Below are positions 5,701-41,537 of a stretch of DNA of 50,356 bases, piece by piece. The position numbers and the translations under genes are program-made. Within the stretch, counting starts at the first letter, position 1, and each line of letters opens with the position of its first letter. Source of the stretch: a virus (taxonomy: Duplodnaviria; Caudoviricetes); the IMG/VR virus record IMGVR_UViG_3300048823_000117, positions 1 to 50,356 of that record. The stretch is one strand, 5' to 3'. The notes under the pieces were generated by a model, which made no database searches, had not been told where the DNA came from, and was given only the letters and a program-made list of their open reading frames with translations.

Positions 5701-6558
5701 CTACAGCCCCATACAGGTCAGTATAAAGTGGTTATCCTGAAAAGCGATCGAAACGTTGAACATAAAGAGTGAGATAATAAACGGAGGTGACGAGCCAACC
5801 TCCAGCGATTCGACGCTATTACCATTCGCCCCGCCTCCGGCACCCGAGCCTGGCGAGACAGTACAAGCTGGCGGCTGGGTGAACTGTCCTGTCAGCGGGA
5901 CGATCTGATACTGCCCCGTACCCAACCTCGTGCAAGTGAAGTTCCCCGGTTGGAACCCAGAGATCGCAATCTGCGTATCCTGTATACAACCCCCGACTCC
6001 ATCCCAGCCGCCAAAGGCGACCTTCGGCCAGGGGACGCTCGTCGCCCGAGGGAAAGTAACTGCACCGGCTTGGTTAATACACTCAACAGAGCCCAGAGCG
6101 GCAGTAAAGACTGAATAAGTCCCTGGTGCGGCGCCGTTACAGTACCCCGAGATTGTATCCCACTCGACGTTCCCTGCCTGTCCATCGACCAGCCCGTAGG
6201 AGCTCGCCGTGGCAGTCGGCGATTGATTCTTCACAATTCCTGTACCAATAGTCACTCCACCCGATGAGCCAACTATCCCTACTGGGCCTAACAGCATATT
6301 TCCGGTTAGCACCGATAGGCTTGGAGCAATCAGCTGCTGCGAAAACGCCACGTTGCCTGTAAACGTAAGGTTCTGCGCGACCAGCCAGGCGGCGATCTGC
6401 GACAAGGTCATTTTCTTCGTCGCACCCGACTGTACCACCGGGAACGGCTCAAGGCCAGTAGTCGAGGTACTAGCCGCTGGCAGCGCTGAAATTGGCGTCT
6501 GCGCTTGGGCCAGTCCACAAGCCAGCAACAATACCCCTAGGGCTAAAATGCGCTTCAT
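5701..6558 (-). CDS. Tail-fibre/receptor-binding-like protein with Sec signal peptide
   Basis: ATG at 6558 with AAGGAG RBS. MKRILALGVLLLACGLAQA|Q is followed by a fibre-type N-terminal module (PISALPAA..FPVVQSGATKKMTLSQI) and a C-terminal TRLGTGQYQI..FILTCMG tip. Confidence 0.65.
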   Translation of the reverse strand: MKRILALGVLLLACGLAQAQTPISALPAASTSTTGLEPFPVVQSGATKKMTLSQIAAWLVAQNLTFTGNVAFSQQLIAPSLSVLTGNMLLGPVGIVGSSGGVTIGTGIVKNQSPTATASSYGLVDGQAGNVEWDTISGYCNGAAPGTYSVFTAALGSVECINQAGAVTFPRATSVPWPKVAFGGWDGVGGCIQDTQIAISGFQPGNFTCTRLGTGQYQIVPLTGQFTQPPACTVSPGSGAGGGANGNSVESLEVGSSPPFIISLFMFNVSIAFQDNHFILTCMGL

Positions 6559-7204: not shown

Positions 7205-8522
7205 CAGAGTAGCTCATGCTACGGGCGTAGCCTAAAGACTGCAGTAATGGCAATTCCCCCGCTAACTTCCTGCCCACGTCGGTGCGCATCATTCGGTTAG
7301 AAGGCCACCGAACCCCCCACGCAACGCCATATGCGGCCATAGCGGCCGATTCTACCGTAGGACCGCTTCCTGTGACCACCGCCACGTACGTCCCCGCCGT
7401 TGTGAGACATCGCCTGTGACGGAGGTTTCCATCGTCGTCGATGACTGGTTCCATGCCCATCCGCACCATCTGCCAGTGGATGTGATTCGCCGACTCCTCG
7501 TCGAAGTGTATCGGGAACCCAGACCACTTCTCGTGCGGGTCGTTTGAGATTGGGTAGTCGCCGTGGGTCATTACAACGCCGACTGCGATATCAGGTCGGG
7601 GGTTAAACTCATCCCGGCCGGCAAGCATCGCTGCCATCCACTCGACAGGGTCGTGGTCGATTACCTCTTGGCGGATGTTGAAGTCAGGCCAGCCTAACCT
7701 CGAGGTGAACTCCAACGGCCACGGCGTTCCGTCCGAGTCCACAATGCAGTTCACCGAACAATCTCCCACATACCCAATCTGGTACAGGTAGTCCGTCAAG
7801 GGCTTCAGCACCCGGTCGAACAGCAGAGATTCCTGCACGTGCCGCAGGACGGTTCCCTGCTCGCCGGTGTTCTGCCCCAGGTCGTCGTTGAGGAAGCGTT
7901 TGTGTTCCCAAGATTCCTCCACCATTCGCAACCAGCCCGACTGCGGGCTAAACCAGCCGGCAATCCCGACCTCCACCCCGTCGGCTTTCTTCTGCAGCAT
8001 GAGCTTGCTGTTCAGCCCGGCGTCCCTCCACCGTTCGAGTTGGAAAATCGCTTCTTCCGGCGAATTGGCGACACAGGTAAGGGACTTATCGCCTTCCCCT
8101 CCCCAGGGCTTGATGACAACTGGCTCCCTCGAGGCGACGACATACTCAATTGCATCATTGAGATTCTCGACAGTAACATACGGCAGAATCTGAACTCCTT
8201 GAGACTGGAGCACTTGCTGTCCGAGAGCCCGGTCAAGTTCAAGCTGCGCGCTCGCCGCATTGGCGCCAAAGATAGGGTAACCAGATTCAAAGTACGGTTC
8301 GAGTTTGTTGGCATAGCGAGAATTCCCGTTGACGATTACCAAATCGCTCCCGTCCATTAAGGGTTCCCAGTCTCGCGGGCGATCAACCAGCCCCTCGCCG
8401 AAGGTTAGTTCTTGGCGGCTGGGCGGTAGCCAGTACCTGACATCATGCCCCCACTCCTTCGCTCGCAGGGCGATTCCCAGCCCCGTTGCCTCGCCCTCGA
8501 CTTCGATGATCAGTATTCTCAC
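7197..8522 (-). CDS. PurD (GAR synthetase)-like ATP-grasp ligase
   Basis: AQLELDR, PVVIKP, EHKRFLNDDLGQNTGEQG (cf. PurD DHKR..GPNTGGMG), PLEFTSRLGWP, TAGTYVAVVTG, MMRTDVG. The PurD N-terminal GxGGREHA motif is absent. Confidence 0.85.
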   Translation of the reverse strand: MRILIIEVEGEATGLGIALRAKEWGHDVRYWLPPSRQELTFGEGLVDRPRDWEPLMDGSDLVIVNGNSRYANKLEPYFESGYPIFGANAASAQLELDRALGQQVLQSQGVQILPYVTVENLNDAIEYVVASREPVVIKPWGGEGDKSLTCVANSPEEAIFQLERWRDAGLNSKLMLQKKADGVEVGIAGWFSPQSGWLRMVEESWEHKRFLNDDLGQNTGEQGTVLRHVQESLLFDRVLKPLTDYLYQIGYVGDCSVNCIVDSDGTPWPLEFTSRLGWPDFNIRQEVIDHDPVEWMAAMLAGRDEFNPRPDIAVGVVMTHGDYPISNDPHEKWSGFPIHFDEESANHIHWQMVRMGMEPVIDDDGNLRHRRCLTTAGTYVAVVTGSGPTVESAAMAAYGVAWGVRWPSNRMMRTDVGRKLAGELPLLQSLGYARSMSYSDG

Positions 8523-11523: not shown

Positions 11524-12135
11524 TCAGTTAAAGACGAACTGGTTTTGGTCGATGGGCTGGTTCGCAGGCGCGCCGGTCACGTTAATCGAACCAGCAGGTG
11601 TACTCGCCGGCGCCCCGGTCTGCCCCTTCTGGTACCCCAGCATGCCGTAGAAGCCGAGGCTATTCAGCAAGCTGCTAATCGTACTGGTCGCTTGCCCTGT
11701 CGCTCCAGTCGCAGCATTAATACTCGACGCAGGTGAACTTGGCGCCGTTACGCCAGACAACGCCGAGAGCAACTGCGTCTGTTGGCCGTAGAACGAACTC
11801 GCCAGCCCCTGGCCGAACGACGTCAGCGCTGCTCCCTCGTTCCCACTCCCGGCAAACCCCCCTGCAGCCATCTGATCGGCCACCGCAGCTGCTCCAGTCT
11901 GCTCTTGAAACTGAAACCCAGGCAGTTGCCCCACACTCGACGGATTCGCGATAAGCGTCTTCAGCAGGTTATTGTAATATCCCTGCTCCCCTGCAGTGTT
12001 CTGCGCCAGGCTAAGCGCAGAGCTTGCCTCCGACCCAGACTGGCTCGCCTCGTATCCTCCAATAGCCAGACTCCCGGCGGCCGCCACCGCAGTCAACCCG
12101 GCCGTCAGACCTATCCCTGTTACTAAGCCAACCAT
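11524..12135 (-). CDS. DNA ejection/pilot protein (P22 gp7-like)
   Basis: Gly/Ala-rich hydrophobic N-terminus; PGFQFQ..G..A....AAGG..GSG...AL..FGQGLAS motif. Confidence 0.7.
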   Translation of the reverse strand: MVGLVTGIGLTAGLTAVAAAGSLAIGGYEASQSGSEASSALSLAQNTAGEQGYYNNLLKTLIANPSSVGQLPGFQFQEQTGAAAVADQMAAGGFAGSGNEGAALTSFGQGLASSFYGQQTQLLSALSGVTAPSSPASSINAATGATGQATSTISSLLNSLGFYGMLGYQKGQTGAPASTPAGSINVTGAPANQPIDQNQFVFN

Positions 12136-12581
12136 AGCTGCTCCTGGACACCTTGCCCTCGCATCAGCAGCGGCGCAACCGGCTCGAAGAACTCATCTTC
12201 AAGTTCTTCTATATCACGAATCTCGTTCGGATTAGCGTGAATGCTGCAAGCGGTTATCGGGGTCAAGGTGTGAATCACTGTTTGAAACCCAGGGACCGTC
12301 ATAAGACGGTCGATGGCGTTATGAACTGTAGTGCCCTTTTCAGTGATCAGCTCAGTTCGGCCACGGAGTAGCTCTACCAAGTGCCCCTTCTTATGGACTC
12401 GGCCGATGAAGATGAAGTCGGCCGGCAGGTCGAATTCGCGAACATAGCGCCCAGGATGAAAGATGTGGCGAACCTCGAAGTCTTCCACTTGATAGCCGCC
12501 GACCTGACGAATCTTCCACGCCAAGTAAGCGATCTTATCCTTCCAACTCAGCTCAGGTTGGAGCGGTGTACTGAGTGACAA
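12123..12581 (-). CDS. Cupin-like phage protein
   Basis: VRHIFHPGRYVREFDLPA..IGRVHKKGH..SIHAN pattern. Confidence 0.6.
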   Translation of the reverse strand: MSLSTPLQPELSWKDKIAYLAWKIRQVGGYQVEDFEVRHIFHPGRYVREFDLPADFIFIGRVHKKGHLVELLRGRTELITEKGTTVHNAIDRLMTVPGFQTVIHTLTPITACSIHANPNEIRDIEELEDEFFEPVAPLLMRGQGVQEQLWLA

Positions 12582-17736: not shown

Positions 17737-18459
17737 TTAAGGTGCCGTGGTGCCGGCGCGAAGGAAGTGGTTGTTCAGACAAACCCACCACTTCTGCCCG
17801 CCGCCGCCAGTTGACGGTACGGTGGTAAAGCCGTTGTCGACCCGAGGCGCAAGCCGTAGGATCTTCAACGGGAAGGTTGCGGTCGTAGCTGGTGGGTTGG
17901 TGTCGTTGTCCAACTGTGTACCAGACTGCGCCGTAACGCCAATCGTGGCGGGATTCGCCACGATGACCTCTGCGTTCAGACCGACGGCTGTCTGGGTCAG
18001 ATTGGTCGTCGCACCGCCTTCCTGGATCTCGTAGATCACGAACGGATCGTCCAGGACGAACGCGTAGAAGTACACGCTCTGTGCGGCGGCCGGTCGGTAT
18101 GTCGCCCCGCCTGGACCGGCGTACGGATAGTTACTCGCCGCCCCGCCCAGCACGTTTGGGTTGATGAACTGCGATCCAGTCGGGTCGATACCAACCGCCT
18201 GGACCACACCCACGACTGGGTGGCCAGATCCTGCGACGTACTTCGTGATGATCGGCGTTCCTAGGGTATCACCCCCGGCGCCGAACGTGTTACCTGCACT
18301 AGTCCCGGAGGTGACTAAGTCACCCGGCCAGTAGCCCGACGTGTCCCCAGGTGCAATCGCGTATAGATTGCCCATTCCAGCGAAGCCGCCTACCGATGAA
18401 ATCAGAGAAGCGATCGCTGCCAGACCGGCGGGCTTGCTTGGGTTATTGAAAACACTCAT
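17737..18459 (-). CDS. Capsid decoration/cement-like protein
   Basis: GDLV..VVGVV..VLDDPFVIYEIQE..VGLNA..LKILRL..VCLNNH pattern typical of the gene preceding this MCP type. Confidence 0.65.
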   Translation of the reverse strand: MSVFNNPSKPAGLAAIASLISSVGGFAGMGNLYAIAPGDTSGYWPGDLVTSGTSAGNTFGAGGDTLGTPIITKYVAGSGHPVVGVVQAVGIDPTGSQFINPNVLGGAASNYPYAGPGGATYRPAAAQSVYFYAFVLDDPFVIYEIQEGGATTNLTQTAVGLNAEVIVANPATIGVTAQSGTQLDNDTNPPATTATFPLKILRLAPRVDNGFTTVPSTGGGGQKWWVCLNNHFLRAGTTAP

Positions 18460-22759: not shown

Positions 22760-22941
22760 CAGTTAGCATTCTCACAGTTCTTGCAACGGGGCAATGGACT
22801 CCGACTGGCGGTCCACCATAACCAGCCCTTGCTGACGTACAGTCCACAGGCGGTTAGTCCTTCACTATGCGACTTACCGTACATTATGTGCTTGACCTTG
22901 CCAAGCGGCCGAGCTACGTAGAAGAAACGTTTCATACTCAA
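22759..22941 (-). CDS. Small zinc-finger-like protein
   Basis: H..TACG..CKNC; coupled between TerL and portal. Confidence 0.55.
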   Translation of the reverse strand: MSMKRFFYVARPLGKVKHIMYGKSHSEGLTACGLYVSKGWLWWTASRSPLPRCKNCENAN

Positions 22942-24416
22942 TATCCCGTCACTTGGTTGCGACCTTCAGCCTGTCGCGCAGCATTACCGCCGGCGATCCA
23001 GTCGAGTTCCTCGTCAGTCACATCATCCTCAGGTTCGACCTCTGGCATAGAATCAGTTCCGATGACGAGCCAGGCGGTGGAGTCGAAATCGTCATCCTCA
23101 AGGGCTTCGGCCTCGGCGGTGAACAAGAGCATCACAGATTCGTACTCGGGGTACCAGTCGGCGTCTTTGTCAAACGACATACCCTTGTTTTTCATTCGCT
23201 TCTGCATCGGTCGGCCGCGAGCAGCTTTGTCCTTAGACGCAGTCTTCGGCTCGATGTTGAGGTAGATGTTCCGCGAGCGCATTTCGGCTTCAAGGGTCGA
23301 CTTGAGCGTCAACCAGATCTGCCCCGACTCGACGAAGAAGAACTCTGGGTTCCAGCGAACCTGGATTGAGAAGAACTCCTCAATCAGCTGCGAACCATCC
23401 ATGCGGCCCTTTCGGCGGTCGACCACGTCCAGATGGCCGCCAATACATCGCCGACCTACGGTGAAGACGGAATTGTTCGCGCTATCCGCTTGGCTGATGG
23501 CCAAGTCCACACCCACTGCGAACCGACCGAAGCGCTCTTTTTCGTGCTCTTCAAGGGCGATGAACCATTCCTTTTTCAGATAAGCGTCTTCACGGTCCCG
23601 AGGCGCGTTCAGGTACTCGCACGAGTAACCAGCCGGATCCTTCGCGTCTATGAACTCTTGCTGCCGGCGGCGGAGTTCCGCCTCGTTGAACCTCGACGGC
23701 CAAAGAATGGCGCTAAAATTGCTGTAGCTTGCATGGGCTCGATAGATCCTATGGGTCCACGACTTACTATGGGTAAGATTCCACAGTAACGAGTCATCGT
23801 GAAGAATCGTCCCGTGGATTCGGGACAGACCGCCCTCGCCAAGGAGCTGCTTCGCCACTCGGAAGAACCACGCACGGAACGCCTTACGGGTCTCGGTAGT
23901 TGAAACGTTTTCCTCTGATTCAAGATCGTCTCCAAGGAGTAGGTCCGGCCGCATTCCGAGCCATAGCATGCCACGGATCTTCTGCCCGCTGCCCTTGGCG
24001 GAGATTCGGAACTTGTACCCGTCGGTACACTCGACGATGATGTCGGTCTGAGTATCGACGATGAAGTCTTTAATGCCGAAGTCCCGGCGCAGGGCCTCGT
24101 TGTTCTTCAGCGCATCTACCGACCGACCGAGGTGCTCGATCGCCAGGGCCTCGCTCGCGCTGAACAGTACCACGTACCTGCGCCAGCGGAACAGCACAGC
24201 CGCCAGCATGAACGCATCGGTGAACGCGGATGACTTCCCGTGCTTACGAGGAGCCGCCAGGGCGACGTTTTCGTCCGACGCATCGCAGTACAGAGCCCAT
24301 CCCTCCCGGTGCATACCGCACACCGGGTGGGGCTGATCGTACCCAGGGCTCAGGTAAGCCCCGGCGAAATTCTCGATCAGCTGCGCGTCGAGCGCAATGA
24401 GACCCTGGCCCTTCAC
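22938..24416 (-). CDS. terL: Terminase large subunit
   Basis: Walker A APRKHGKS, Walker B LLLGDDLE, GTILH, nuclease VGVDLA and DDDFDS. Confidence 0.93.
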   Translation of the reverse strand: MKGQGLIALDAQLIENFAGAYLSPGYDQPHPVCGMHREGWALYCDASDENVALAAPRKHGKSSAFTDAFMLAAVLFRWRRYVVLFSASEALAIEHLGRSVDALKNNEALRRDFGIKDFIVDTQTDIIVECTDGYKFRISAKGSGQKIRGMLWLGMRPDLLLGDDLESEENVSTTETRKAFRAWFFRVAKQLLGEGGLSRIHGTILHDDSLLWNLTHSKSWTHRIYRAHASYSNFSAILWPSRFNEAELRRRQQEFIDAKDPAGYSCEYLNAPRDREDAYLKKEWFIALEEHEKERFGRFAVGVDLAISQADSANNSVFTVGRRCIGGHLDVVDRRKGRMDGSQLIEEFFSIQVRWNPEFFFVESGQIWLTLKSTLEAEMRSRNIYLNIEPKTASKDKAARGRPMQKRMKNKGMSFDKDADWYPEYESVMLLFTAEAEALEDDDFDSTAWLVIGTDSMPEVEPEDDVTDEELDWIAGGNAARQAEGRNQVTGY

Positions 24417-25012
24417 GCTGGCTTAGCAGCCGGTGGCAACGGCGCCGGGCTCGGAGGAGCTGGCTGACCGACCGCGTTAGCGGGTAGACTCGCTGGCATT
24501 GGGCTACCTGAGACCGGCGGAGCGACGTTCTGCGGCAGCGGCGTTGCCGCCTTGAGTTCAGCCTCAGTTGGGGTAGGAGCTACAACTGGCGTGACTGACG
24601 GGGGCGGAGCCCCTGTACTGAAGCCGTCAACCGGGGTGGCGTTGACAGTTGGGGTACCAGCCGCCGGCGGATCGAGCTTCGCGGCATACCCTGGTGGTGG
24701 GTAGTCGGCGGCCGAGAAGCCCTCCGCGAGGAACTCCTTCAGCGTCGGGCCATCTTCACGCAACTTAGTCCAGCCGGGGGCAGCCGCCACAGGACGAGGA
24801 ACTGGGTTGTTGACCATTTGGTCCTTATGCCAGGCAATGTAGGGCAGGGCGCCCGGCGGTCCACCTGACATAAGAGCAGAGCCGAGGCTGAGGAGTGCTC
24901 GTCGCATACAGGCGAACTCGAACTCGAGGTCCGACAGTCGGCTGTCAGCAGTCTCAGTCGGAGGGGTTGACGCCTTGGAAGTCGGCGCAGGTGCGGTTGT
25001 GGTATCAGTCAC
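24413..25012 (-). CDS. Pro/Ala-rich hypothetical protein
   Basis: Low-complexity 199-aa ORF, GTGA-coupled to terL. Confidence 0.6.
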   Translation of the reverse strand: MTDTTTAPAPTSKASTPPTETADSRLSDLEFEFACMRRALLSLGSALMSGGPPGALPYIAWHKDQMVNNPVPRPVAAAPGWTKLREDGPTLKEFLAEGFSAADYPPPGYAAKLDPPAAGTPTVNATPVDGFSTGAPPPSVTPVVAPTPTEAELKAATPLPQNVAPPVSGSPMPASLPANAVGQPAPPSPAPLPPAAKPA

Positions 25013-25021
25013 GAAGGTCTC

Positions 25022-25351
25022 CTAGTTAAGGGGCGGCTTAATCGCAAGCGCCGCAGTTTTAGTAATGACTCGAGCGAGGTTAGTCGTGGCGGTCACGACG
25101 ACTTGATAAATTGTGCCTAACACACCTGCGGACAAGACGACCGCTACTACCGCCGGAACGCCAGCGTAGTTGTTAAGAATGTTCTGCCCAGTGATGATTG
25201 CCTGAGGGTTAAGGTCATTGCCGCTGTAGACAGTTGAAGTCATAGTCACAACATTAACCGACTCGCCCGTGGCCAATTCGTCGGTGCAGTCCGCGTATCG
25301 AACCACCGTCTCTCCAATGGTCTTCGGCTTCCAGTCAAGTTTCCCGCTCAT
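25022..25351 (-). CDS. Putative fibre/tail adaptor-like small beta protein
   Basis: K..GE....YAD....L..GE..G..GTIYQVVVTATT pattern. Confidence 0.5.
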   Translation of the reverse strand: MSGKLDWKPKTIGETVVRYADCTDELATGESVNVVTMTSTVYSGNDLNPQAIITGQNILNNYAGVPAVVAVVLSAGVLGTIYQVVVTATTNLARVITKTAALAIKPPLN

Positions 25352-27240
25352 TTACATGCAGCGTAGTTAGTCGGACAGGCGCCATTGATACGCCAACCAG
25401 CAGAGTTAATAGCAGTGCGTACTCCAGCTAAAGTCTGGGTCGAATTGCCATTTGTCTGCGTGTCGATCCAGATAAAATGGGTTACTCCCAGGTTGCTGAA
25501 TCCATAGCTTTCGGTACCCGCTGAGGTCTGATTGGTCCAAGAGTAAGCGTTCGCCTGGACTTGGAACCCTAACGGCACCTTGCCCTTGAAGACGTTCGTG
25601 CCATAACTGCTACCCTCGCCCTGCACAATAGCCTCACCCGAGGTCTCGCATTGTGTGGTACTGGTTGCGGTACAGTGGGGGGTGGTCGCTCCGTAAGGAG
25701 TTAGATAGATGACATCGGGTCCACCAAATCCCCAGCCAGTATTGCCGGCGATAACAGGGAAGCGGGCGGCCATCGTAGAGAGCGCTTCACCCTGAATGCC
25801 CCAGTTGTCGTTGAAGAACTTGTTGGTCGTCGGCCACGAGACTGACAGAGCAGTGGCCATAGCTTCGTACTGGGTTTGATAAGCACTGGCTGAATAGTCA
25901 GCCGGCTCAGACCCAGGACCAGAACTGTTCCAAGTCAAGCCAGTTTCGGGTATAGGGACTATTCCCTCGACGTTCGGGTTGCCGTCGTACTTCTTGCCGA
26001 GGTAGTTAAACAGATTTATATAGGCCGTCATCGTGGCAGGACGCCACAAGGCTACGGTGGCGGTGTTCTGAGTACGGACGAGATCAGTACCGAAGCCGCC
26101 TACGCCTGTAATGATGTAGTCAGGGGCGATTGAGGAGCTATTGTTGGAGGCGCCATAAGGCGCCCCCTGTGGAACGGTCGGAAGAGTACCAGGTGCCTGC
26201 CAGTACTCGCTCATTACGAGGATGATTAACTTGTACGTTACACCATCAGCCGCACTGGCTGAAGCCAGAGTAGCTAAGTCAGTATCAATCAGTATAGTGT
26301 TATAAACCGTACTGCTTACACCAGCCGGCAGGGTACCGCCTCCAGCCGTCCCGTCGGTCGGCCCGCCAGTTGGCTCGAGATAGAACCAACTATAGTCGTT
26401 CTCGATCCCTTTGAACCCGGGCTTTCCGGTCGCAGAGTTAATTGACCCCCGCATATCTGGGCCAAAGGAGGACCAGTTTGTTGATTGGTTCGTCGGGTTG
26501 ATCGGCGCTTGGCTAAGCGCTACCGGGTAATTAAAGTAGTGGCCAGGAGTCCACTTGATAGCAACCACTCCACTGGGCGGAACGCTTGTACCGAGATACA
26601 TCCCCGACCAGTTGGCCAGGACGACGTCAGTCGGCGCCTGGCCGTTCGAGTTGATAATCAACCCTGGTTGGCCAGAAGCAATCGACGAGTCGGTATAGTT
26701 AAAAGCGGCGACCTTAGTCCCGCGAAGGGTGACGTATAGGCTGGTGCCTTGAGCACAAACGCCGACGAGGTCGCCGGAATTAACTGTCTCGGTAGTCGCT
26801 GTAACGAGGGTTGTGACCGAGCCAGCTATGTTCTTGAACAGTAACATGCTTGCGGTGGCGCCTAGAGGGCCAGTCACCGCTACCCCGTAGAAGGTGCTGG
26901 CGGACGAGCTACTGCGAACCAGGACCTGGAAACTGGCTGAGCTAACTGCGTTCAAAGTGTTGACTTGAACCTGCGAGCACTGGTCGTTGGGGTAAGCGAT
27001 GTTGAACTGATTCCCGCAGTCAGTCACACCGACGTGCGAGCACTGGAGGGTATTGCTCACTACGCTTAGCGTAACATCGGACAATCCACCATTAACTACT
27101 ACCCAGTTCGACTGGCCGGACAGATTGCCGTTCGCGTAAGAGAACTTGTCCAGGGATAGAATGTTCCAATAGAACGCCGCCTGCGGCAAGGCCGTCGAGG
27201 CGACGAAGGTCAAGACCAGGGCAATTAACAAACGACGCAT
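25348..27240 (-). CDS. Signal-peptide protein: N-terminal lectin-like beta-sandwich plus clan GH-A-like glycoside hydrolase domain
   Basis: MRRLLIALVLTFVASTALPQA signal; KWTPGHY, FKGI...YSWFYLEP, LGKKYDGNPNVEG..ETG, GFGGPDV. Confidence 0.6.
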   Translation of the reverse strand: MRRLLIALVLTFVASTALPQAAFYWNILSLDKFSYANGNLSGQSNWVVVNGGLSDVTLSVVSNTLQCSHVGVTDCGNQFNIAYPNDQCSQVQVNTLNAVSSASFQVLVRSSSSASTFYGVAVTGPLGATASMLLFKNIAGSVTTLVTATTETVNSGDLVGVCAQGTSLYVTLRGTKVAAFNYTDSSIASGQPGLIINSNGQAPTDVVLANWSGMYLGTSVPPSGVVAIKWTPGHYFNYPVALSQAPINPTNQSTNWSSFGPDMRGSINSATGKPGFKGIENDYSWFYLEPTGGPTDGTAGGGTLPAGVSSTVYNTILIDTDLATLASASAADGVTYKLIILVMSEYWQAPGTLPTVPQGAPYGASNNSSSIAPDYIITGVGGFGTDLVRTQNTATVALWRPATMTAYINLFNYLGKKYDGNPNVEGIVPIPETGLTWNSSGPGSEPADYSASAYQTQYEAMATALSVSWPTTNKFFNDNWGIQGEALSTMAARFPVIAGNTGWGFGGPDVIYLTPYGATTPHCTATSTTQCETSGEAIVQGEGSSYGTNVFKGKVPLGFQVQANAYSWTNQTSAGTESYGFSNLGVTHFIWIDTQTNGNSTQTLAGVRTAINSAGWRINGACPTNYAACK

Positions 27241-28301
27241 CAGGTTTCCCCTGTGCCAGTGGTATGCCAGCCGGTCGTCGTATCCTTGTCAATTGACACG
27301 TCGGCTCCAGCCGCAAGCGTCCGACTCCCTGTCGTATTCACCGGGCTGAATGTCAGGGTATCGCTTACGATCTGCAGGGTCACAACCGCCGACGCGGCTG
27401 AGACGTAGATGCGGATCTTGGTCGGCACGACGAAGGCGACCGACGAGTTCGCTGGGATCGTCTCGGTGCAGGCAGAGGCGCAGTTGATATAGATCTTATT
27501 ATTAGCGTCTCCAATCGCCATAGTATCGTTGCCAGTCACATTACGCTGGGTAACCGCGCCGCTAGGCGTTGAACAGTTCGCAGCACCAGCCGTCGTGACG
27601 CCAGTAGCAAATTGGCCGCCAGTACACTGACTAGGAGATGAGGCTAAGGCGGCGGCGGTCGAGGCGGCGATTGTCCCTGTCCCAGTGAAGGACATTGAGC
27701 AGCCAGTCCCACAAACCATCGCGGCGATAGTGTTGGTTGAACTGGTAATCGAGCTAAACGCGCTCGAGCTCCCCGAGCCGCAGGCAGCGCCCGAGTCAAC
27801 CGCTACTCCAAGGGCAGACCACTGCATACAGTGGCCGGAGGTTATACCGCCATTGAAGATAACCAAGGCGCAGTTAATCAGCGAAGTGCAACCCGTTCCA
27901 CCGTTTACTTGTGGGAGGACCCCATTAAAGGCGTTTGCTGTTATGTTGCCACTGAGCTGGCAAGAACTGTTACAAATCATTACGGCTGTGGCGTTAGTGC
28001 CGCCAGTTACCAAGGCCCAGCTCGAGCCACCTGCTCCTGTACCACAAGGCGCTCCAGCGTCGCCGATAGTCGTTGAGGTGAAGAACTTGGCGCAATCGTT
28101 CGGCGTCGGCGAGGCGACGATCAGGGCCTGCTGCATGTACGCAAGGAACATCGAAAAGGTGCACTTGCTAGTCGTGCCGGACTGATCGCAGATAGAGTAA
28201 TCGCTGCCGGAAATCGACCCGCCTAAGGGTAAGTTCTGCACCGAGACTTGAGCAAAGGCTAATACCGGCAACAGGGCTAGCAACAGGAATAGCTTTTTCA
28301 T
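27240..28301 (-). CDS. Signal-peptide, Cys-rich tail-fibre-like protein
   Basis: MKKLFLLLALLPVLAFA|Q (upstream in-frame starts also possible); fibre-type N-terminal module; two C..DxGAxCG modules; LPQVNGGTG; C-terminal fibre tip ending W...G. Confidence 0.65.
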   Translation of the reverse strand: MKKLFLLLALLPVLAFAQVSVQNLPLGGSISGSDYSICDQSGTTSKCTFSMFLAYMQQALIVASPTPNDCAKFFTSTTIGDAGAPCGTGAGGSSWALVTGGTNATAVMICNSSCQLSGNITANAFNGVLPQVNGGTGCTSLINCALVIFNGGITSGHCMQWSALGVAVDSGAACGSGSSSAFSSITSSTNTIAAMVCGTGCSMSFTGTGTIAASTAAALASSPSQCTGGQFATGVTTAGAANCSTPSGAVTQRNVTGNDTMAIGDANNKIYINCASACTETIPANSSVAFVVPTKIRIYVSAASAVVTLQIVSDTLTFSPVNTTGSRTLAAGADVSIDKDTTTGWHTTGTGET

Positions 28302-28434
28302 TGTAAAGTTACTCATATAACTCAATCCCTAATCCGCTTCTACCGGGCACCGGATTAAGATGGGCCATGGCGAAGAAAAAGAAGATGGATGCGCATACCC
28401 GAAATTTAACTACGGGTGCTAGAGGTTCCAACAG

Positions 28435-29289
28435 CTAGTTGGATCCGACGGCGCCAGTGGATAGCAAATAACTGCCCGTAGTGCAGTTGGGCGTCGTGAA
28501 ACTGCCGGTCCCCTCATTCCAATACGAGCCGCTAGTGCCATTCGGAACTGCGAAGACGCCCGTACTGGACCAGAAGGAGTGCGTACACGAGGCGCCGGAT
28601 CCTTCCGTAAACACCAGTCCCGTGGTATCCCAATTATCGTACTGCCCCACCCCGGATGAGCCGAAGGTCGCAGCGTTGGATCCTGTGGAGGTTACCCGCC
28701 TATCCTCGAACAGCACCAGATTCCCGGATGGAGAGAGCCAAGGATTTCCCCTGGTGGTGAACCCGGTTCCAGCGGTGGGTGCCACTCCATTGTTCTCATT
28801 GGCAGTCATACCCCACAGCATGGCTGGCACTGAGGTGATCGAAATCGTCGTGGAGGTCACCGTATCCGTGCCGTTGGTGGTGCCGGCTTGGGTTTGTCCA
28901 ATACACCCGGCATAAGCGCCTAGCCCTGAGTATTCCGATACCAAGATACCCGACAGGCCGCCTACCGCTGTCGCGGTGACGACCGTGGCTCCAGCGGCTG
29001 CGGCCAATACGTAATAGTAAGAAGTGCTGAAAGCAGCCCCCGTGACGGTGCAGGCGGCCGTGTAGGTGTTGCCGTTTCCGGTCACAGTAGCGATAGGTTT
29101 GCCGCTATTTGCGATATAGACGCCAACGATGAGCGTGTCACCGGCAGTCACAGTGATCGAGCTTGCGGCGATGGAACCCACGCCAGATGCGGTGTTGTTC
29201 TGCCCATCTTGAACGTGTGCGTAGGTTGCGAATGCCGGGGATGCAATCGCAAGAAGAAACAGCGCAAGAGTTGCGCGCAGTAGTTTCAC
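28435..29289 (-). CDS. Signal-peptide beta-rich (fibre/adhesin-like) protein
   Basis: GTG at 29289 overlapping the upstream stop; MKLLRATLALFLLAIASPAFA|T; VTAGDTLIV..SEYSG..PTAGTGFT. Confidence 0.6.
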   Translation of the reverse strand: MKLLRATLALFLLAIASPAFATYAHVQDGQNNTASGVGSIAASSITVTAGDTLIVGVYIANSGKPIATVTGNGNTYTAACTVTGAAFSTSYYYVLAAAAGATVVTATAVGGLSGILVSEYSGLGAYAGCIGQTQAGTTNGTDTVTSTTISITSVPAMLWGMTANENNGVAPTAGTGFTTRGNPWLSPSGNLVLFEDRRVTSTGSNAATFGSSGVGQYDNWDTTGLVFTEGSGASCTHSFWSSTGVFAVPNGTSGSYWNEGTGSFTTPNCTTGSYLLSTGAVGSN

Positions 29290-31271
29290 TGTATGTACCC
29301 CTGGATTGCCTGCCACTTAGCTGGTGCACTGCCAATAGGTGAGATCGTCTGCATGATGCTTTCGAGCGCTCCCCATGCGCCGTTGAAAGTGATCGGCCCA
29401 ACATCTGAGAAGATGTTGTTGATGTTTGTGGAAGTGGCGCCGACGTTGGTCTTCCAATAGTTCAGGTACGTCGTGTATGCAGTGCCCATTCGCGCATCAC
29501 GCTCAGCGCTAATGACAAGTGCAGGCCATCCGCTTGCTGTCCCTGATGATGTCGCATAGAAGTTCTGGCCGCCCTCATAGGCAACGAGGCTCAACGTCGG
29601 ATAGGTCGGCATGATCGCCGTGTAACTGTTTATCTGGCCCTCGATCTGCCCCAGCCATCCACCCGATGGGACGCTCGAATAGCTCTGTGATCCATTACCA
29701 ACGGTGCCTGTTTGGCTGTAGAGGGTTGCAAAGAAGTCATCTAAGGGAGTGGTGACGCCGGTCATCGTCGTGGCATCACCGGAACTTGGATTTCCGCCCC
29801 AGTAAGGAGCTATCGAGAGTGCTTTTACCGGGTAGCTGGTGACCGGCCCGCTTGGCCAATCAGCCGCCGCAATCGCAAGTGTTGCGGTCGCTGTGAAGGA
29901 AGCCTGTCCGCCTAAGACAGGAATACAGTTGGCAAAGAGCGTTGAGCCCACCGCGGTTTGAATGTCGGTGGCCATCTGCGCCACCCGCATGCCGTACCAA
30001 CTGCGGTTATATTCAAATCCACCGGCCGCGGTGTCGGACGGCCACAGCACATATCCTGCGGTAGAGGCAATCGTGTTTTGAGGAAATGCGCCGTTCCACA
30101 CCTCGTTGGAGAACTCAGAGTAGAACTTCAAACCTGAAGTAAGCGCAGAATATCCCGACTGTGCCCCGGTCCCGCTCATGACCAGTTGCGCCCAGCTTTC
30201 TATGTAGGCGTCGGAGGCGTTCACGGGCACGTTCATCCAACAATTGGCACCGATCGCATTGCACATCGCGACCTGGACTTCGTAGGGCACGCCATCCGAT
30301 CGGGTGTACGAAGCATTAGACGGCAGCGCCCGATTCGCCCAGGACTTGGAAATATCGACTGGGAAATAGGGCAGGTAGTTGAACGAGGTCCCCCCGGTCC
30401 AACTGACAGTTGTGCTCCCATAGGTAAAGGATGCCGCCTTTACCTCGCTTTGCGGGGCGCTGTTGCTTAAAGTGCCGAAGTAGATGTTGTAGGTTCCGGT
30501 CGGATACGGCCATGCTTGGTTGAGCGTAAGACCTGTGGCACCTGAGTTGATCTGCGTTCCGCTAGAACACGCGCCAGATGATGCACAGGCTGCCTCGTAG
30601 GCTTGAGCATTCGTGTTGCGCCAGTCCATCATGCGCAATAGCTTGAAGTTAGCCATCGCGGTGAGGAATGATGGGGCAAATATCGCTCCGGCGTTGTAGG
30701 CGGCAACATTGCTGGTCTGAACGATGCTCAGGTTTGTGAGATGGTTTCCTGAAGTTGACGATGTGATATTGACGAAGAGGCCGTTCGTCGTGGCGCTTGA
30801 GACCGTAAAGGTACTTCCGGATGTCGTGATCGTCGCGCTCGCATCCCCTGAAATGACGACTGTTCCGGCACCTGAGAACTGAACGGTGTAACTGCCCGTG
30901 GGGTAATAGAGGCTCTGTCCGGGAGCCAGCGAATATCCGCCAGGTGCCCGATAGACGAGGCAATAGACCTGCGTGCTGGTGAGGCCGCTTTGAGGAATGA
31001 TCAGCGGATAGCCGTCAGAGTCCGTATTGAGCGAGTATTCCTCGCTCGTGTCGCCCCCTCCGTTCGAGGTACTGGTGACCCAGGTAGAATCTAGCGTGTT
31101 GCTGCCGCACATCTTCATGATATTCATGAAGGGAAATTCGGTCGTGAAGTAGTTGACGGAAGTCAGCTCAATGCCTAACGGGTTTACAACTATCGGAACA
31201 GCCCCCCACGGGCGCGCGAAAGTGGGCAGCGATGCCGTCAAACACAGCAGAACCGGAAGTAAGCGCTTCAT
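29286..31271 (-). CDS. Signal-peptide clan GH-A-like glycoside hydrolase (putative depolymerase)
   Basis: MKRLLPVLLCLTASLPTFA|R; FPFMNIMK, LRMMDW, GVPYE..CN...WMNVP, EFSNEVWN (acid/base), AYEGGQ (nucleophile), WGALE. Confidence 0.7.
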   Translation of the reverse strand: MKRLLPVLLCLTASLPTFARPWGAVPIVVNPLGIELTSVNYFTTEFPFMNIMKMCGSNTLDSTWVTSTSNGGGDTSEEYSLNTDSDGYPLIIPQSGLTSTQVYCLVYRAPGGYSLAPGQSLYYPTGSYTVQFSGAGTVVISGDASATITTSGSTFTVSSATTNGLFVNITSSTSGNHLTNLSIVQTSNVAAYNAGAIFAPSFLTAMANFKLLRMMDWRNTNAQAYEAACASSGACSSGTQINSGATGLTLNQAWPYPTGTYNIYFGTLSNSAPQSEVKAASFTYGSTTVSWTGGTSFNYLPYFPVDISKSWANRALPSNASYTRSDGVPYEVQVAMCNAIGANCWMNVPVNASDAYIESWAQLVMSGTGAQSGYSALTSGLKFYSEFSNEVWNGAFPQNTIASTAGYVLWPSDTAAGGFEYNRSWYGMRVAQMATDIQTAVGSTLFANCIPVLGGQASFTATATLAIAAADWPSGPVTSYPVKALSIAPYWGGNPSSGDATTMTGVTTPLDDFFATLYSQTGTVGNGSQSYSSVPSGGWLGQIEGQINSYTAIMPTYPTLSLVAYEGGQNFYATSSGTASGWPALVISAERDARMGTAYTTYLNYWKTNVGATSTNINNIFSDVGPITFNGAWGALESIMQTISPIGSAPAKWQAIQGYIQ

Positions 31272-31964
31272 TTAATTGAAGTCGCAGTTGAAGCTGATGA
31301 CATCAGTTGTCGCAGCTGCTGCCGGAATCGGCAGCGTCGCCGTCGTGGTGGTGCTGGCCGATTGAATCCAGGCCGGGATCCACGTACCCGCGTTCATGGC
31401 TGTCTGATCCCCTACGCTGCAGTGATAGCCGTACGGTGCAGTGAAGCCAGTAGCGCCGTTTATCTCAATGGTGACCGCCGTGCACGGACCTGAAGCCAAC
31501 GTAAACGTGCCCCCGAACGGCCCTGCGTGCGTGATCGTGGGAGTGCAGCCAGTGCCGCTGATCGTATAGGCGGTGGTGGCGCCGATATCTGCGATAGTGC
31601 TTGCAGAGGCCGCGACGAATGAGGTTCCTCCCGCTCCCGTCTGATACGGGATATTGTTCGCTGCGCCGCCGGCGATGTTGGTGGCTGTACCGACAGTGAC
31701 GGTTGATGCAGCAGTACCCGTGCAATTGGTTGTACTGGTGAAGATGCACAGCTGACCGACAGAGCCAGGACCAATACCAGCGCTTCCACTGCCACAAGCT
31801 GCCCCAGCGTCTGCCAAGACGCCGACCTGTTGCCACTTCGTACAGTCACCAGGAGTAATTGGGGTGATGTAGGTCAGTCCGCTAACCGATCCACCACCGA
31901 CGCCTTGGGCGAACCCGATGATCGGGACCAGGGCTAGGAGGAGCAGGGCGAGTAGGCGGCACAT
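31272..31964 (-). CDS. Signal-peptide, Cys-rich fibre-like protein
   Basis: MCRLLALLLLALVPIIGFA|Q; ITPGDCTKW..LADAGAACGSG module; ATNIAGGAANNIPYQTGAG fibre repeat. Confidence 0.6.
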   Translation of the reverse strand: MCRLLALLLLALVPIIGFAQGVGGGSVSGLTYITPITPGDCTKWQQVGVLADAGAACGSGSAGIGPGSVGQLCIFTSTTNCTGTAASTVTVGTATNIAGGAANNIPYQTGAGGTSFVAASASTIADIGATTAYTISGTGCTPTITHAGPFGGTFTLASGPCTAVTIEINGATGFTAPYGYHCSVGDQTAMNAGTWIPAWIQSASTTTTATLPIPAAAATTDVISFNCDFN

Positions 31965-31966
31965 GG

Positions 31967-32572
31967 CTAATTCCTGCCCTGTGAGGCGACGAGGAACGCC
32001 TTACCCGCACCAGTGAAGGCGGTACAGATGAGGCGAGACATCCAGACTGGGTAGGCGTAATTGCCAGTTGCGCGAGCTACGAGGCCAGTTAGCGACGGGT
32101 GGGTGAACACGCGGGCGGAGGTCACTCGGGCCTGGAATACGCTTGTCTGGTTAACCGGAGTCACGACGGTGTAGGTATTCACGCCCGTTACCGTAACCGG
32201 GTAGCCAGACTGGTTGCCCGAGTCAACGCCGACTTGCGAGCCCTGGAGGAATACCAAGTCGCCGGTTAGCAGCCCATGACCGAACGGGCCACCCCAGGCC
32301 TGGTTCGACGGTGCGCCGTTAATGGTCTCGGGGCCGTAGTCGGTTATCGTAGCAGTAGTCGAGGCAGACTGAACGCCTTGAACCAGACGCTCAGAGGTCT
32401 GTGACTGGTCGTCGGCGACGTACTGAACCGCAAGAGTGGCGTTGAGGACGCTGTCGAAGAACACGCTCAGCGTGACGTCGAACGGACTCTGCCCAGTGTC
32501 GTGCTTGATCCAGGGGCTTACCGAGGCAGTCCCAGCGACCGCCATGGCGACCTGTTGGATTCGCGTAGCCAT
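31967..32572 (-). CDS. Putative virion protein (beta-sandwich with an E1-FCCH-like insertion)
   Basis: SPWI..PFDV..VQY..DD..GNYAYPV..RL frame with an inserted HGLLTGDLV..YPVTVTGVNTYT. Confidence 0.55.
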   Translation of the reverse strand: MATRIQQVAMAVAGTASVSPWIKHDTGQSPFDVTLSVFFDSVLNATLAVQYVADDQSQTSERLVQGVQSASTTATITDYGPETINGAPSNQAWGGPFGHGLLTGDLVFLQGSQVGVDSGNQSGYPVTVTGVNTYTVVTPVNQTSVFQARVTSARVFTHPSLTGLVARATGNYAYPVWMSRLICTAFTGAGKAFLVASQGRN

Positions 32573-32862
32573 TAGGCAACTCCCTTCAATCGCTTCGACG
32601 GCCGGATAGGATCTCGGCCCTCGTCTTGGGCCTTGGGCTCCGAGTCGAACATCGGATTCCGGTCGGCGAACCGAGTTCCTCGAGTACCATCCGGTACCGG
32701 CTTCCCAGGACCCGGGACCGACGAATTAACCCTCCCGGGGGCCAGGACCGCAAGGTTCGGCACTGGCTGTCGAGTCGCCTGTCCACGTTTCGACCACTTG
32801 GTTGTCACAGAATTAACCTCCGGCAGCCCCGGAGGCTGCTGACTTAACGACGATCTCGGCAT
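32572..32862 (-). CDS. Hypothetical basic Pro-rich protein
   Basis: Coupled ORF after terS. Confidence 0.5.
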   Translation of the reverse strand: MPRSSLSQQPPGLPEVNSVTTKWSKRGQATRQPVPNLAVLAPGRVNSSVPGPGKPVPDGTRGTRFADRNPMFDSEPKAQDEGRDPIRPSKRLKGVA

Positions 32863-33436
32863 CCGAGACGTCGGGAGACTGGTTGAGGTTGCGCAGATTG
32901 TCGCGCAGCTGATGCAGGTGCAAGTGCATATCCACCCGCTGCGGGGTGCCGGGCAGGTCCCGGGCGCCGTAACCGAGGAGCTTCGAGGTCATCTCGGCCG
33001 ACTTGATGATTAGCTGAGGAGGAATGAGTTCCTCGGGCTGGTCGAGCTTACTCGCCAATAGCCGAAGGCTATTCTTGAGAATCCCCCGGGCTTCTTCCTC
33101 GATCGAGGCGAACCGGAGCTTAAACGCCGCCTGGCGCTCGGGCTCGATTGACTTCTCGATTCGATCCGCAAGGCGGACCTGGAATGCGTCGCTGGCGATC
33201 AGCCGGCTGAGGTAGCTCTGGGTATAGCCAAGGCGCTTGGCCAGCTGCCCCTGCGTCTCGGTCGGGGGGCTAAGTAAGAGCGCATCAACGATCTGCTCAT
33301 AGGTCAACGAGACTGTAGTTATTGGTGGCAACCTAGCCGAGGCGGCTGGACTGGCACCTGATACCTGCGGGGCAGACGGTTCGTCTGGGGGTGATGCGAT
33401 CCCCAGTAGGCTTAACGTCCCTGCGGTGCCGTCCAG
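32813..33436 (-). CDS. Putative terminase small subunit / HTH protein (CTG start at 33436 proposed; ORF track start 33331)
   Basis: HTH TQGQLAKRLGYTQSYLSRLIASDAFQ; first gene of the late arm; the frame is open to a CTG preceded by GGGGAGAAGGGA. Confidence 0.6.
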   Translation of the reverse strand: MDGTAGTLSLLGIASPPDEPSAPQVSGASPAASARLPPITTVSLTYEQIVDALLLSPPTETQGQLAKRLGYTQSYLSRLIASDAFQVRLADRIEKSIEPERQAAFKLRFASIEEEARGILKNSLRLLASKLDQPEELIPPQLIIKSAEMTSKLLGYGARDLPGTPQRVDMHLHLHQLRDNLRNLNQSPDVSDAEIVVKSAASGAAGG

Positions 33437-41131: not shown

Positions 41132-41307
41132 TGTACGAGCCCATCTTCAACCTCGAATGCGTCGAATGCGATTCCGAACCTGTCGTCGGCATCCGAGACG
41201 ACGAAGGTTCGCTCCGCTGCACGCACCTTTGCGGCAGCTGTTTTTTCAGTGACCGCAGCATGAACGACTGGGACCTCTGGAACGAACCTCAGGAGTCTAC
41301 AGAGTGA
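41131..41307 (+). CDS. Small CxxC-CxxC protein (58 aa, not in the ORF track)
   Basis: Hand translation MYEPIFNLECVECD..LCGSCFF..; coupled on both sides. Confidence 0.6.
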   Translation: MYEPIFNLECVECDSEPVVGIRDDEGSLRCTHLCGSCFFSDRSMNDWDLWNEPQESTE

Positions 41308-41537
41308 CCGACGAAGAGGCCAACTATACCAAGGTCGCCGACGGAGTCGACGCACTAATGGCCAAGATCTACCCAGGGAGTAAGTTCCTCGTCGTCACCG
41401 TCTGGGTCTGCGAAGCAGAGGCCTGGGTCCACGTCGCCTCGAATAGCAAGATGATGGCGCTGAAGTTACTAACCGACGCCAAGGATTGCATCGAAGGTAA
41501 CATCGGCTACGCACCTATAAGGAGCCTGGATTCATAA
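41304..41537 (+). CDS. Hypothetical protein
   Basis: AGGAG RBS, GTGA coupling. Confidence 0.55.
   Translation: MTDEEANYTKVADGVDALMAKIYPGSKFLVVTVWVCEAEAWVHVASNSKMMALKLLTDAKDCIEGNIGYAPIRSLDS

Follow-up and report, generated by a model that had tools for sequence, protein, structure and literature searches.

The window, by which we mean the whole analysed stretch of 50,356 nucleotides, represents a complete genome (about 50 kb) of a tailed phage. It encodes six fibre-like or sugar-cutting proteins, here called A to F, each with a predicted N-terminal export signal; a precedent for this did not emerge from the literature searched. All six genes are located on the minus strand. Five of them are consecutive: A (31272..31964, 230 aa; signal peptide 31964-31908 ending at GFA|Q, 8 Cys in the mature part), B (29286..31271, 661 aa; signal peptide 31271-31215, TFA|R, 7 Cys), C (28435..29289, 284 aa from GTG 29289; AFA|T, 4 Cys), D (27240..28301, 353 aa from ATG 28301; AFA|Q, 16 Cys) and E (25348..27240, 630 aa; PQA|A, 8 Cys). 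The sixth gene, F (5701..6558, 285 aa; AQA|Q, 6 Cys), is found elsewhere in the genome.

The interval that contains A-E is delimited downstream by the gene for the large terminase (terL, 22938..24416, minus strand). At its other end lies J (32813..33331, minus strand), which encodes a terS-like HTH protein of 172 aa whose homologues are positioned directly upstream of terL in relatives. Synteny thus bears out the claim, made previously in a sequence-only reading of this DNA, that five consecutive signal-bearing genes separate terS from terL. Genes without signal also occur in the interval. These are G (31967..32572, minus strand, 201 aa), the first gene of the inserted block, for which no family match was found, H (25022..25351, minus strand, 109 aa), a probable homologue of the Gp77-type tail-fibre adapter (collar), I (25012-24413), and possibly 32862-32572. 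With H, a PDB sequence search gave no match, and its score against Pfam PF23148 (Gp77 fibre-tail adaptor) is 25.0 bits (E 2.8e-5) at a curated cut-off of 27 bits. Its homologue in G001, the closest complete relative, reaches 49.3 bits, and PF23148 is pre-annotated in five of nine H homologues.

The block with A-E is inserted between the terS-like gene and the Gp77-type collar gene adjoining terL, and is not present in G001. Its GC content equals that of the genome. The block is co-transcribed and translationally coupled with neighbour genes. A promoter-like site is found upstream of J (33501-33473), and no sigma-70-like promoter and no convincing terminator were detected inside the block. The B stop codon overlaps the GTG 29289 start of C as GTGA, the D stop overlaps the E start, and the E stop overlaps the H start (ATGA). 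In at least one other contig, H likewise directly follows D-E. The possibility of a self-contained moron was considered and rejected for want of a separate promoter and terminator in the block and because its genes adjoin or overlap those next to them.

The N-termini of all six genes, whether given or only implied by the sequence-only reading, were found in the sequence: MCRLLALLLLALVPIIGFA|Q in A, MKRLLPVLLCLTASLPTFA|R in B, MKLLRATLALFLLAIASPAFA|T in C (from GTG 29289; a start at GTG 29316 adds 9 residues, giving 293 aa), MKKLFLLLALLPVLAFA|Q in D (from ATG 28301; a start at TTG 28325 adds 8 residues), MRRLLIALVLTFVASTALPQA|A in E and MKRILALGVLLLACGLAQA|Q in F (from ATG 6558). For F, an alternative is a possible lipobox, LLA|C. 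Signals were scored by a home-made measure of n-, h- and c-regions (not SignalP) with a flagging cut-off of 4.5. A-F received the six highest N-terminal scores, 4.82-6.36, among 75 greedy ORFs of the window. Scores of at least 4.5 were obtained for eight of 73 window ORFs, namely A-F, 17737-18459 (4.52) and an internal ATG of 41304-41537 (4.93), and for none of the ORFs in two complete relatives (0/61 and 0/77, 0/138 together). The difference between 6/73 and 0/138 is significant (Fisher's test, p=0.0015), and a run of at least five of six marked genes among 73 is expected by chance with a probability of about 2e-5.

Each of the six N-termini consists of a basic n-region, an uncharged hydrophobic h-region of 7-15 residues and small residues at positions -1 and -3. 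No further 19-residue window with mean Kyte-Doolittle hydropathy of at least 1.8 is found in mature A-F. Signals are also retained in orthologues while their sequence drifts. All six aligned members of the E family carry one, with predicted cleavage just before conserved AFYWN, and so do 6/6 members of the close family of D. The proposal that six late proteins begin with cleavable-looking Sec type I signals is thus upheld by the home-made score, by conservation and by the cysteine pattern described below.

It might be argued that the hydrophobic N-termini are not export signals, either because translation starts downstream of them or because they tether the proteins in the cytoplasm or at the membrane, and that A-F are assembled in the cytoplasm like ordinary fibres. 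C and D indeed have two candidate starts each. However, both candidates include the hydrophobic core in either gene. Signal-including starts are preceded by SD-like motifs (A, E, F, the TTG of D, the GTG of C) or abut or overlap the upstream stop codon (B, C, E). Together with the n/h/c architecture, the conservation despite drift and the strong association of signals with high cysteine content, this makes the cytoplasmic alternative very improbable. Export of A-F is well supported, as far as it can be predicted from sequence.

The sequence-only reading described several of these proteins as Cys-rich, and the counts given above agree with this. Cysteine makes up 2.1% of mature A-F vs 0.65% of other late proteins, and the mature count is even in five of the six. 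In the D family, eight of 41 homologues have a signal and carry 8-16 Cys; the 33 without signal carry 0-3, with one exception (Mann-Whitney, p=8e-6). The exceptional member contains 11 Cys and has an uncharged hydrophobic N-terminus, in which no signal was scored. Similarly, among 43 viral ORFs with the repeat of D, the 27 signal-bearing ones are Cys-rich (p=5e-6). A strict link between signal and cysteines across the whole family of the E N-domain was rejected, as the difference in 117 domain instances is weak (mean 2.44 vs 1.46 Cys). The link is limited to the own clade of E, with four invariant Cys, and to the D family. Cysteine richness of A-F, as read from the sequences, would fit oxidative folding, and the predicted signals suggest that folding of these proteins takes place outside the cytoplasm, the compartment of virion assembly.

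The mature parts had been taken for fibres, adhesins or glycosidases. This holds for D, F and A, which are fibre-like and are connected by shared motifs, and for B and E, which are glycosidase- or lectin-like. The model of B (pLDDT 91.7) consists of a beta-sandwich (about residues 30-310) and a (beta/alpha)8 barrel (about 310-660), with disorder confined to residues 1-26. In 36 sequences, N389-E390 and E566 do not vary. In the model, N389-E390 follows strand 383-387 and E566 follows strand 561-564, with strands 449-454 and 484-487 in between. Glycosidases of clan GH-A (4/7) have one glutamate after strand 4, in an N-E motif, and another after strand 7. With the strand numbering that we take to place N389-E390 and E566 as these two residues, the predicted structure of B fits the clan GH-A pattern. 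No Pfam GH family was found for any of the 36 members, and neither sequence nor profile search with B gave a PDB match.

B has relatives at no fewer than 554 bacterial loci, and its family is composed mostly of secreted proteins or lipoproteins of bacteria: 16 of 36 homologues score as having signal peptides and several have lipoboxes. Structural neighbours of B belong to clusters of "putative cellulose-binding protein" fused to CBM9, PA14, dockerin or RTX modules. In viral contigs, 75 loci were detected by an alignment-based scan; a single-protein scan gave none. The N-domain of E (residues 22-225) adopts a predicted ConA-like lectin fold with the four invariant Cys. Over residues 22-219, it resembles PF06439, Laminin_G_3 and GH59_C modules with TM 0.70-0.81, both sides of the comparison being predicted models. 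ConA-like modules of this type are accessory modules of secreted pectate lyases and proteases. The C-domain of E (about 225-627) is exchanged in relatives in which the N-domain is kept at 71% identity. Both B and E look like ordinary secreted carbohydrate-active proteins of bacteria rather than fibres.

A further question is that of passenger genes, meaning host-derived exoenzymes (auxiliary metabolic genes) whose role would be only to feed or help the host. The overwhelmingly bacterial family of B and the lack of the block in the closest complete relative are in accord with such an explanation, as are published accounts of viral and prophage CAZymes in these terms (PMC13507307). D and F, however, are fibre derivatives and not metabolic enzymes, the block is embedded in and coupled to a late structural operon without regulatory signals of its own, its GC content matches the genome, and no evidence of lysogeny was seen in the record. 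We therefore regard a mere passenger role as quite improbable.

Protein A has a mature part rich in Gly, Ser, Thr and Ala and contains the motif C..W....G...D.GA.CG.G, which occurs twice in D. D combines the N-terminal motif of fibres with two fibre repeats and, at the C-terminus, a tip domain also present in signal-less phage tail fibres. Homologues of this tip domain occur in many signal-less fibre proteins with PF18454/PF07880 and in minor tail proteins of Gordonia phages. An AF2 monomer of D, built from a 6-sequence alignment, has a mean pLDDT of 32. An N-terminal motif, ..ISALPA....G.E..P..Q.G.TKK.T..Q, is common to D and F. A signal-less fibre aligning with it (contig L128) matches a PHROG tail fibre at 1.6e-42. 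From their sequences, D and F are classed as tail-fibre derivatives; a close homologue of either was found in no cultured phage. Homologues of C without signal are present in two other phage contigs.

Aligned with signal-less fibres of related podophages, the predicted mature N-termini of D and F fall in register with residue 2 of these. The same register is observed for a signal-bearing fibre of the related phage L021, and two more viral contigs have their predicted cleavage site immediately before DTKISALPA. Among 80 sampled viral genes with the N-terminal fibre motif, 78 begin directly with it and two bear a signal. In addition, F occupies the position of a signal-less 597-aa fibre in G001.

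Such placement of the predicted cleavage sites leads to a reading in which A-F (D and F at least, perhaps A-E as a set) are real fibres or spikes of the virion. They would fold oxidatively and trimerise in the periplasm and become attached to the tail or Gp77-type collar only on lysis or shortly thereafter, when holin and endolysin mix the compartments. We consider this a serious contender, albeit one with the odds somewhat against it. Besides the N-termini, which in D, F and the L021 fibre correspond to the very beginning of signal-less fibres, and the replacement of the G001 fibre by F, it is favoured by the collar gene H, which was kept, is overlapped by the E stop and recurs in D-E-H synteny. 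E moreover shows the pattern of receptor-binding proteins, a conserved N-domain with swapped C-domains.

A further point for docking at lysis is that all variable fibre-like genes of this genome bear signals, and the conserved virion core (portal, capsid, 275-aa protein, N-domain of a 211-aa protein, adaptor and nozzle) contains no evident large fibre. The sequence-only reading saw no signal-less tailspike or fibre gene. For an obvious large fibre in the conserved core this is correct; small candidates without signal are nevertheless present. A 152-aa protein (12581-12123) matches PHROG short tail fibre and tail fibre adhesin families (E 7.9e-14 and 2.3e-12); its PDB sequence search gave no match. 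The related podophage type GP4 is described as having fibres built from subunits of about 140 aa (PMC13730344). Another candidate is a 211-aa protein (7204-6569) whose N-terminal 75 residues are common with the gene preceding the 597-aa fibre of G001. The 275-aa gene following the capsid gene was also considered as the missing fibre and rejected, as its position is conserved in four relatives, which resembles what is expected of a core protein of head or connector. Since small signal-less candidates exist, the virion need not depend on A-F, which weakens the case for docking.

Signal-bearing, Cys-rich fibre genes recur in structural modules of other uncultivated phages. L021 has its signal-bearing fibre together with a B-like gene in the fibre slot between capsid and adaptor. 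This fibre contains an S74 chaperone domain (identified by eye) and gives PHROG tail-fibre matches over residues 429-527. In other lineages, signal-bearing fibre genes are situated between terL and portal (L242), next to terL (L235) and near the nozzle gene (L248). Both arrangements speak for docking. On the other side, no case of a tailed-phage virion protein routed through Sec was found in the literature searched, docking would have to take place inside a lysing, rapidly diluting cell, and no domain recognisable as one for docking was seen in B and E, which are similar to plain secreted enzymes of bacteria. Two near-complete phage records contain the fibre motif as well and gave no Gp77 match, although this comes from a loose search of five motif records whose empty result is in itself uninformative.

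Our preferred reading, which we hold tentatively and at somewhat less than even probability, is that A-F act free, unattached to the virion. They would be proteins of tail-fibre, tailspike and carbohydrate-binding kinds that have acquired Sec (type I) signals, are made late from the same operon as terminase and virion genes, pass into the periplasm and are processed by cleavage at the AxA-like site. Disulfide locking in this compartment would deny them access to the virion assembling in the cytoplasm. Enzymes B and E, perhaps also C, may cut or bind polysaccharides of the host surface or matrix, at first from within the periplasm and, once lysis has occurred, also extracellularly, and fibre-like A, D and F may bind these glycans too. 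Jointly, they could open the way for progeny, and could also destroy or mask the receptors that the dying cell and its debris still present. In this scheme, signals and their conservation, the cysteine pattern, homologies and operon structure are observed, and we infer actual export, cleavage, disulfides, the substrate and the absence of A-F from the virion. The interpretation offered by the sequence-only reading is partly supported, and its two alternatives, attachment at or after lysis and remodelling of the infected cell surface, both keep appreciable probability.

Free action is favoured by the ordinary exoprotein look of B and E, by the small signal-less fibre candidates and, by analogy, by signal-bearing prophage CAZymes, soluble phage depolymerases and Llp of T5 (see below). 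Several observations count against it. The N-terminal fibre motif was retained in D and F, in register with residue 2, although a free adhesin has no evident use for it, and F sits in the slot of a true fibre of a relative. Lack of an own promoter and terminator, coupling to the collar gene and D-E-H synteny give the block the look of a structural module and not of a moron. If trimeric fibres with receptor-binding tips were free, progeny would have to compete with them for receptors, and a type I signal alone leaves a protein in the periplasm of a diderm host.

According to the textbook view, tail fibres, which decide host range, are made and attached in the cytoplasm. A two-compartment receptor-binding apparatus would depart from this: capsid and tail would be cytoplasmic, and fibres or spikes would pass through Sec, be cleaved to a docking N-terminus, disulfide-bonded and clipped to the Gp77-type collar at lysis. 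We give this model a sizeable minority of our belief. If true, signal-bearing fibre genes in unrelated uncultivated phages would make it a recurrent strategy and not a one-off. What the complete genome presents is an export signal on each variable fibre-like gene and a predicted cleavage site placed to regenerate the normal fibre N-terminus. This would point either to exported phage adhesins and depolymerases as a class so far unrecognised, whose action reshapes the surface or surroundings of infected cells, or to an unrecognised assembly route. It matters for annotation, because signal-bearing fibre genes risk being thrown out as "host" or "AMG", for host-range prediction, and for production of stable disulfide-locked receptor-binding proteins and depolymerases.

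Several known systems invite comparison. In filamentous phages, pIII and pVIII are virion proteins with signal peptides that need periplasmic disulfide formation. These phages belong to a different virus realm and assemble by extrusion at the membrane, and we know of nothing comparable for tailed phages. Phage proteins that take the Sec route to the envelope of the infected cell are represented by T5 Llp, a receptor-masking lipoprotein, and Cor, which shield progeny from receptors on debris and block superinfection. A-F resemble them in the predicted route, and F in its possible lipobox; Llp and Cor, however, are small, unrelated to fibres and expressed early or from a prophage.

Soluble phage depolymerases are mostly signal-less and freed by lysis. 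Like the proteins proposed here, they and prophage CAZymes are phage-encoded, glycan-active and act outside the virion; unlike them, A-E form five consecutive exported-type proteins, including fibre derivatives, between terS and terL. Among prophage CAZymes, a signal peptide is reported in 5% (3261/64,678; PMC13507307).

MAT fibre adhesins of Bdellovibrio bacteriovorus are described as Sec-signal-bearing and phage-tail-fibre-like, with variable tips (PMC10769870). Going by that description, and not by sequence, they are like A-F in all three respects, and some of them possess an S74 chaperone domain, as does the signal-bearing fibre of L021. In contrast to A-F, which belong to the late operon of a lytic-looking phage, MATs are cellular genes whose products are, by the same account, displayed on the predator surface. 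Ordinary podophage tail fibres and tailspike depolymerases share with D its tip domain and repeats and with D and F the N-terminal motif, and both kinds of genes occupy variable fibre slots. They are signal-less, whereas in the present proteins the motif follows a cleavable-looking Sec signal and paired Cys are abundant in the mature part.

Six genes of the window begin with Sec-type signal peptides: the adjacent genes A (31964-31272), B (31271-29286), C (29289-28435), D (28301-27240) and E (27240-25348), and the more distant F (6558-5701). Their N-termini read as the sequence-only reading had described them. In a home-made score (n-region charge, uncharged hydrophobic core, small residues at -1/-3), A-F take the six top values, 4.82 to 6.36, among 75 non-overlapping ORFs. 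At a cut-off of 4.5, 8 of 73 window ORFs were flagged, these six plus two borderline cases, of which one starts at an internal ATG and the other belongs to a head protein, whereas none of 61 and none of 77 ORFs were flagged in two complete relatives (6/73 vs 0/138, p=0.0015, Fisher's test). Five of the six marked genes would lie side by side by chance with a probability of ~2e-5. No further hydrophobic stretches were found in mature A-F. SD-like motifs occur at the signal-including starts of A, E and F, at the TTG of D and at the second GTG of C; D has an ATG at 28301, and C likely starts with the GTG at 29289. The start of B directly abuts the TAA of A, and C and E overlap upstream stops as GTGA and TGATG, respectively.

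Conservation, Cys composition and covariation of signals with Cys argue that these signals are in use; judged from sequence, A-F are very probably exported and oxidatively folded. All six aligned members of the E family possess a signal peptide, whose sequence drifts with the site before a conserved AFYWN kept; a signal is likewise present throughout D's close family (six of six). The proposed Cys-richness of the mature parts was borne out (49 Cys in 2327 residues of A-F, or 2.1%, vs 0.65% in other late-operon proteins); the Cys count is even in five of six mature proteins and many Cys pairs are closely spaced. Among 41 D homologues, the 8 signal-scoring ones contain 8-16 Cys and the 33 others 0-3 (p=8e-6), bar one with 11 Cys and a hydrophobic, uncharged N-terminus. 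The internal repeat of D occurs in 43 viral ORFs, where the 27 with signals are the Cys-rich ones (p=5e-6), 27/43 being a biased frequency since the set was found by patterns from the signal-bearing clade. In the wider family of E's N-domain the link is weak (mean Cys 2.44 vs 1.46, 117 domain instances) and confined to E's own clade, where four Cys are invariant.

Greedy ORF picks outline a single long late operon on the minus strand, from ~33.5 kb to 3.8 kb. It is headed by J (33331-32813), a terS-like HTH gene, with the only good promoter-like site upstream. The block follows (signal-less G, 32572-31967, then A-E), and after it the Gp77-like collar gene H (25351-25022), Pro-rich I, large terminase and portal. 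Downstream lie head genes with the capsid gene (17724-16801), an adaptor-like 290-aa and a nozzle-like 534-aa gene, then internal proteins, a 211-aa gene, F and lysis genes. Gene I (24413-25012, minus strand; 199 aa, Pro/Ala-rich) is wedged between H and terL, overlapping the terL start; neither a family nor a counterpart in the closest relative was found for it. A 441-aa ATP-grasp protein (7197-8522, minus strand; Pfam GARS_A 8.8e-8, GARS_C 6.7e-6) sits amid structural and ejection-protein genes, an odd site for such an enzyme.

Synteny with G001, the closest complete relative (terL 47%, capsid 62% identity), shows G and A-E (and I) to be inserted between the terS-like and Gp77-like genes, the latter preceding terL. 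No promoter-like or convincing terminator-like site was detected inside the block, and no DNA match to it among cultured phages. Among deposited phages even the nearest are distant, with terL identities of 37% (an uncultured Caudoviricetes record) and 36% (an Alcaligenes podophage). GC is even along the window (0.51-0.60), which has no tRNA genes. The window (50,356 bases) is the whole virus record and has direct terminal repeats. A DNA polymerase ORF (3-2201, plus strand) is open at the first bases of the record, and another ORF (49881-50354, plus strand) runs past the last. As the polymerase is open and shorter than that of G001 (719 vs 1147 aa), its gene may span the record ends; the genome may be circularly permuted, without true terminal repeats.

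D ends in ~100 residues that make up the tip domain found in many signal-less fibres of phages, and it contains, twice over, a fibre repeat also present in A. The mature parts of both F and D open with the motif ..ISALPA....G.E..P..Q.G.TKK.T..Q, with which signal-less tail fibres of related podophages start outright. In F and D, and likewise in a fibre of L021, a related phage, predicted cleavage leaves the mature N-terminus at most one residue from position 2 of signal-less fibres. A motif scan returned 318 viral stretches; 78 of the best 80 begin directly with the motif and two carry a signal peptide, with predicted cleavage immediately before DTKISALPA. Cleavage in register, together with these 2 of 80, indicates that signals were grafted onto intact fibre genes, a rare but repeated event. 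Cleavage sites so placed in D and F fit the possibility, which we consider less likely than not, that the exported proteins join the virion at lysis.

Gene context also fits virion attachment, as the fibre slot is replaced and the block is coupled to the collar gene. G001 has a signal-less 347-aa beta-helix-like gene after the capsid gene and, in the position of F, a 597-aa fibre that likewise lacks a signal. H is a probable member of the GP4 gp77 family; gp77 is a 93-aa Ig-like adapter, 15 copies of which encircle the head-to-tail adaptor, where they anchor three sets of fibres (PMC11445570). The order D-E-H recurs in one metagenome contig with different genes upstream of D, and a second contig has D and then the beginning of E at its end. 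The longest contigs with an H homologue and with a D homologue, 20,565 bp each and of the same source, are a candidate single contig. In L021 (capsid 57%, portal 37% identity), the slot between capsid and adaptor holds a signal-bearing fibre with tail-fibre PHROG matches and a B-like gene. This 529-aa fibre (L021:8416-10005) ends in a stretch that is S74-type chaperone-like by eye and matches tail-fibre PHROGs. Signal-bearing Cys-rich fibre genes were also found in unrelated lineages, where L242 has its gene between terL and portal, L235 immediately behind terL and L248 near the nozzle gene; those of L242 (9335-11506) and L235 (9464-11326) are fibre-like and directly downstream of terL.

That the exported proteins act unattached has close to an even chance of being right, and fits B and E, which look like ordinary secreted carbohydrate-active proteins. 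B has 36 relatives in a large protein collection, 75 viral loci and at least 554 bacterial loci, foremost in Gammaproteobacteria MAGs (35-42% identity). Signal peptides are scored in 16 of the 36 relatives, several of the relatives have lipoboxes and a few a long signal-less N-terminal extension; of the viral B-like ORFs, 12/36 score >=4.5 (36 of 75 loci taken in). The AF2 model of B (pLDDT 91.7, pTM 0.91, disorder limited to residues 1-26) consists of a beta-sandwich and a (beta/alpha)8 barrel. N389-E390 and E566 are invariant, and both Glu follow strands three apart, which we take to be the 4/7 pattern of clan GH-A. No curated GH family or solved structure was matched by the sequence of B; its neighbours in the Atlas belong to clusters named "putative cellulose-binding protein", with fusions to modules of a typical extracellular kind. 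E consists of a ConA-like lectin module (PHROG 2804) and a C-terminal domain that is swapped in relatives whose N-domain is still 57-71% identical. Two homologues of C in other phage contigs lack the signal, and relative to them C has a ~15-residue hydrophobic insertion past residue 3. Contig L009 (9926-12709) shows the same B-C order: a B-like gene of 684 aa and 12 Cys precedes a C-like one of 242 aa, and no signal was found in either.

The earlier claim that no signal-less fibre gene is visible stands for large ones in the conserved core, which favours virion attachment, but small candidates do exist, and these help the unattached reading. A signal-less 152-aa protein (12123-12581, minus strand) matches PHROG short tail fibre (7.9e-14) and tail fibre adhesin (2.3e-12), with no PDB sequence match, and may serve as one subunit in a chain fibre of the GP4 kind; fibre subunits of ~140 aa are described for GP4-type phages (PMC13730344). 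The other candidate is the 211-aa protein (6569-7204, minus strand), whose N-terminal Cys-x2-Cys...Cys-Cys-x2-His domain is kept in 18 loci of terL-related phages. In those phages a small gene preceding the adaptor gene usually encodes it; in the window and G001 the domain is extended and adjoins the fibre slot.

Virion attachment is without precedent among tailed phages in the literature searched, where Sec-signal tail fibres are not reported. The nearest analogues are Bdellovibrio MAT fibres (PMC10769870), whose S74 subfamily has the same architecture as the signal-bearing L021 fibre with its apparent S74-type end, and the 5% of prophage CAZymes that carry signal peptides (PMC13507307).
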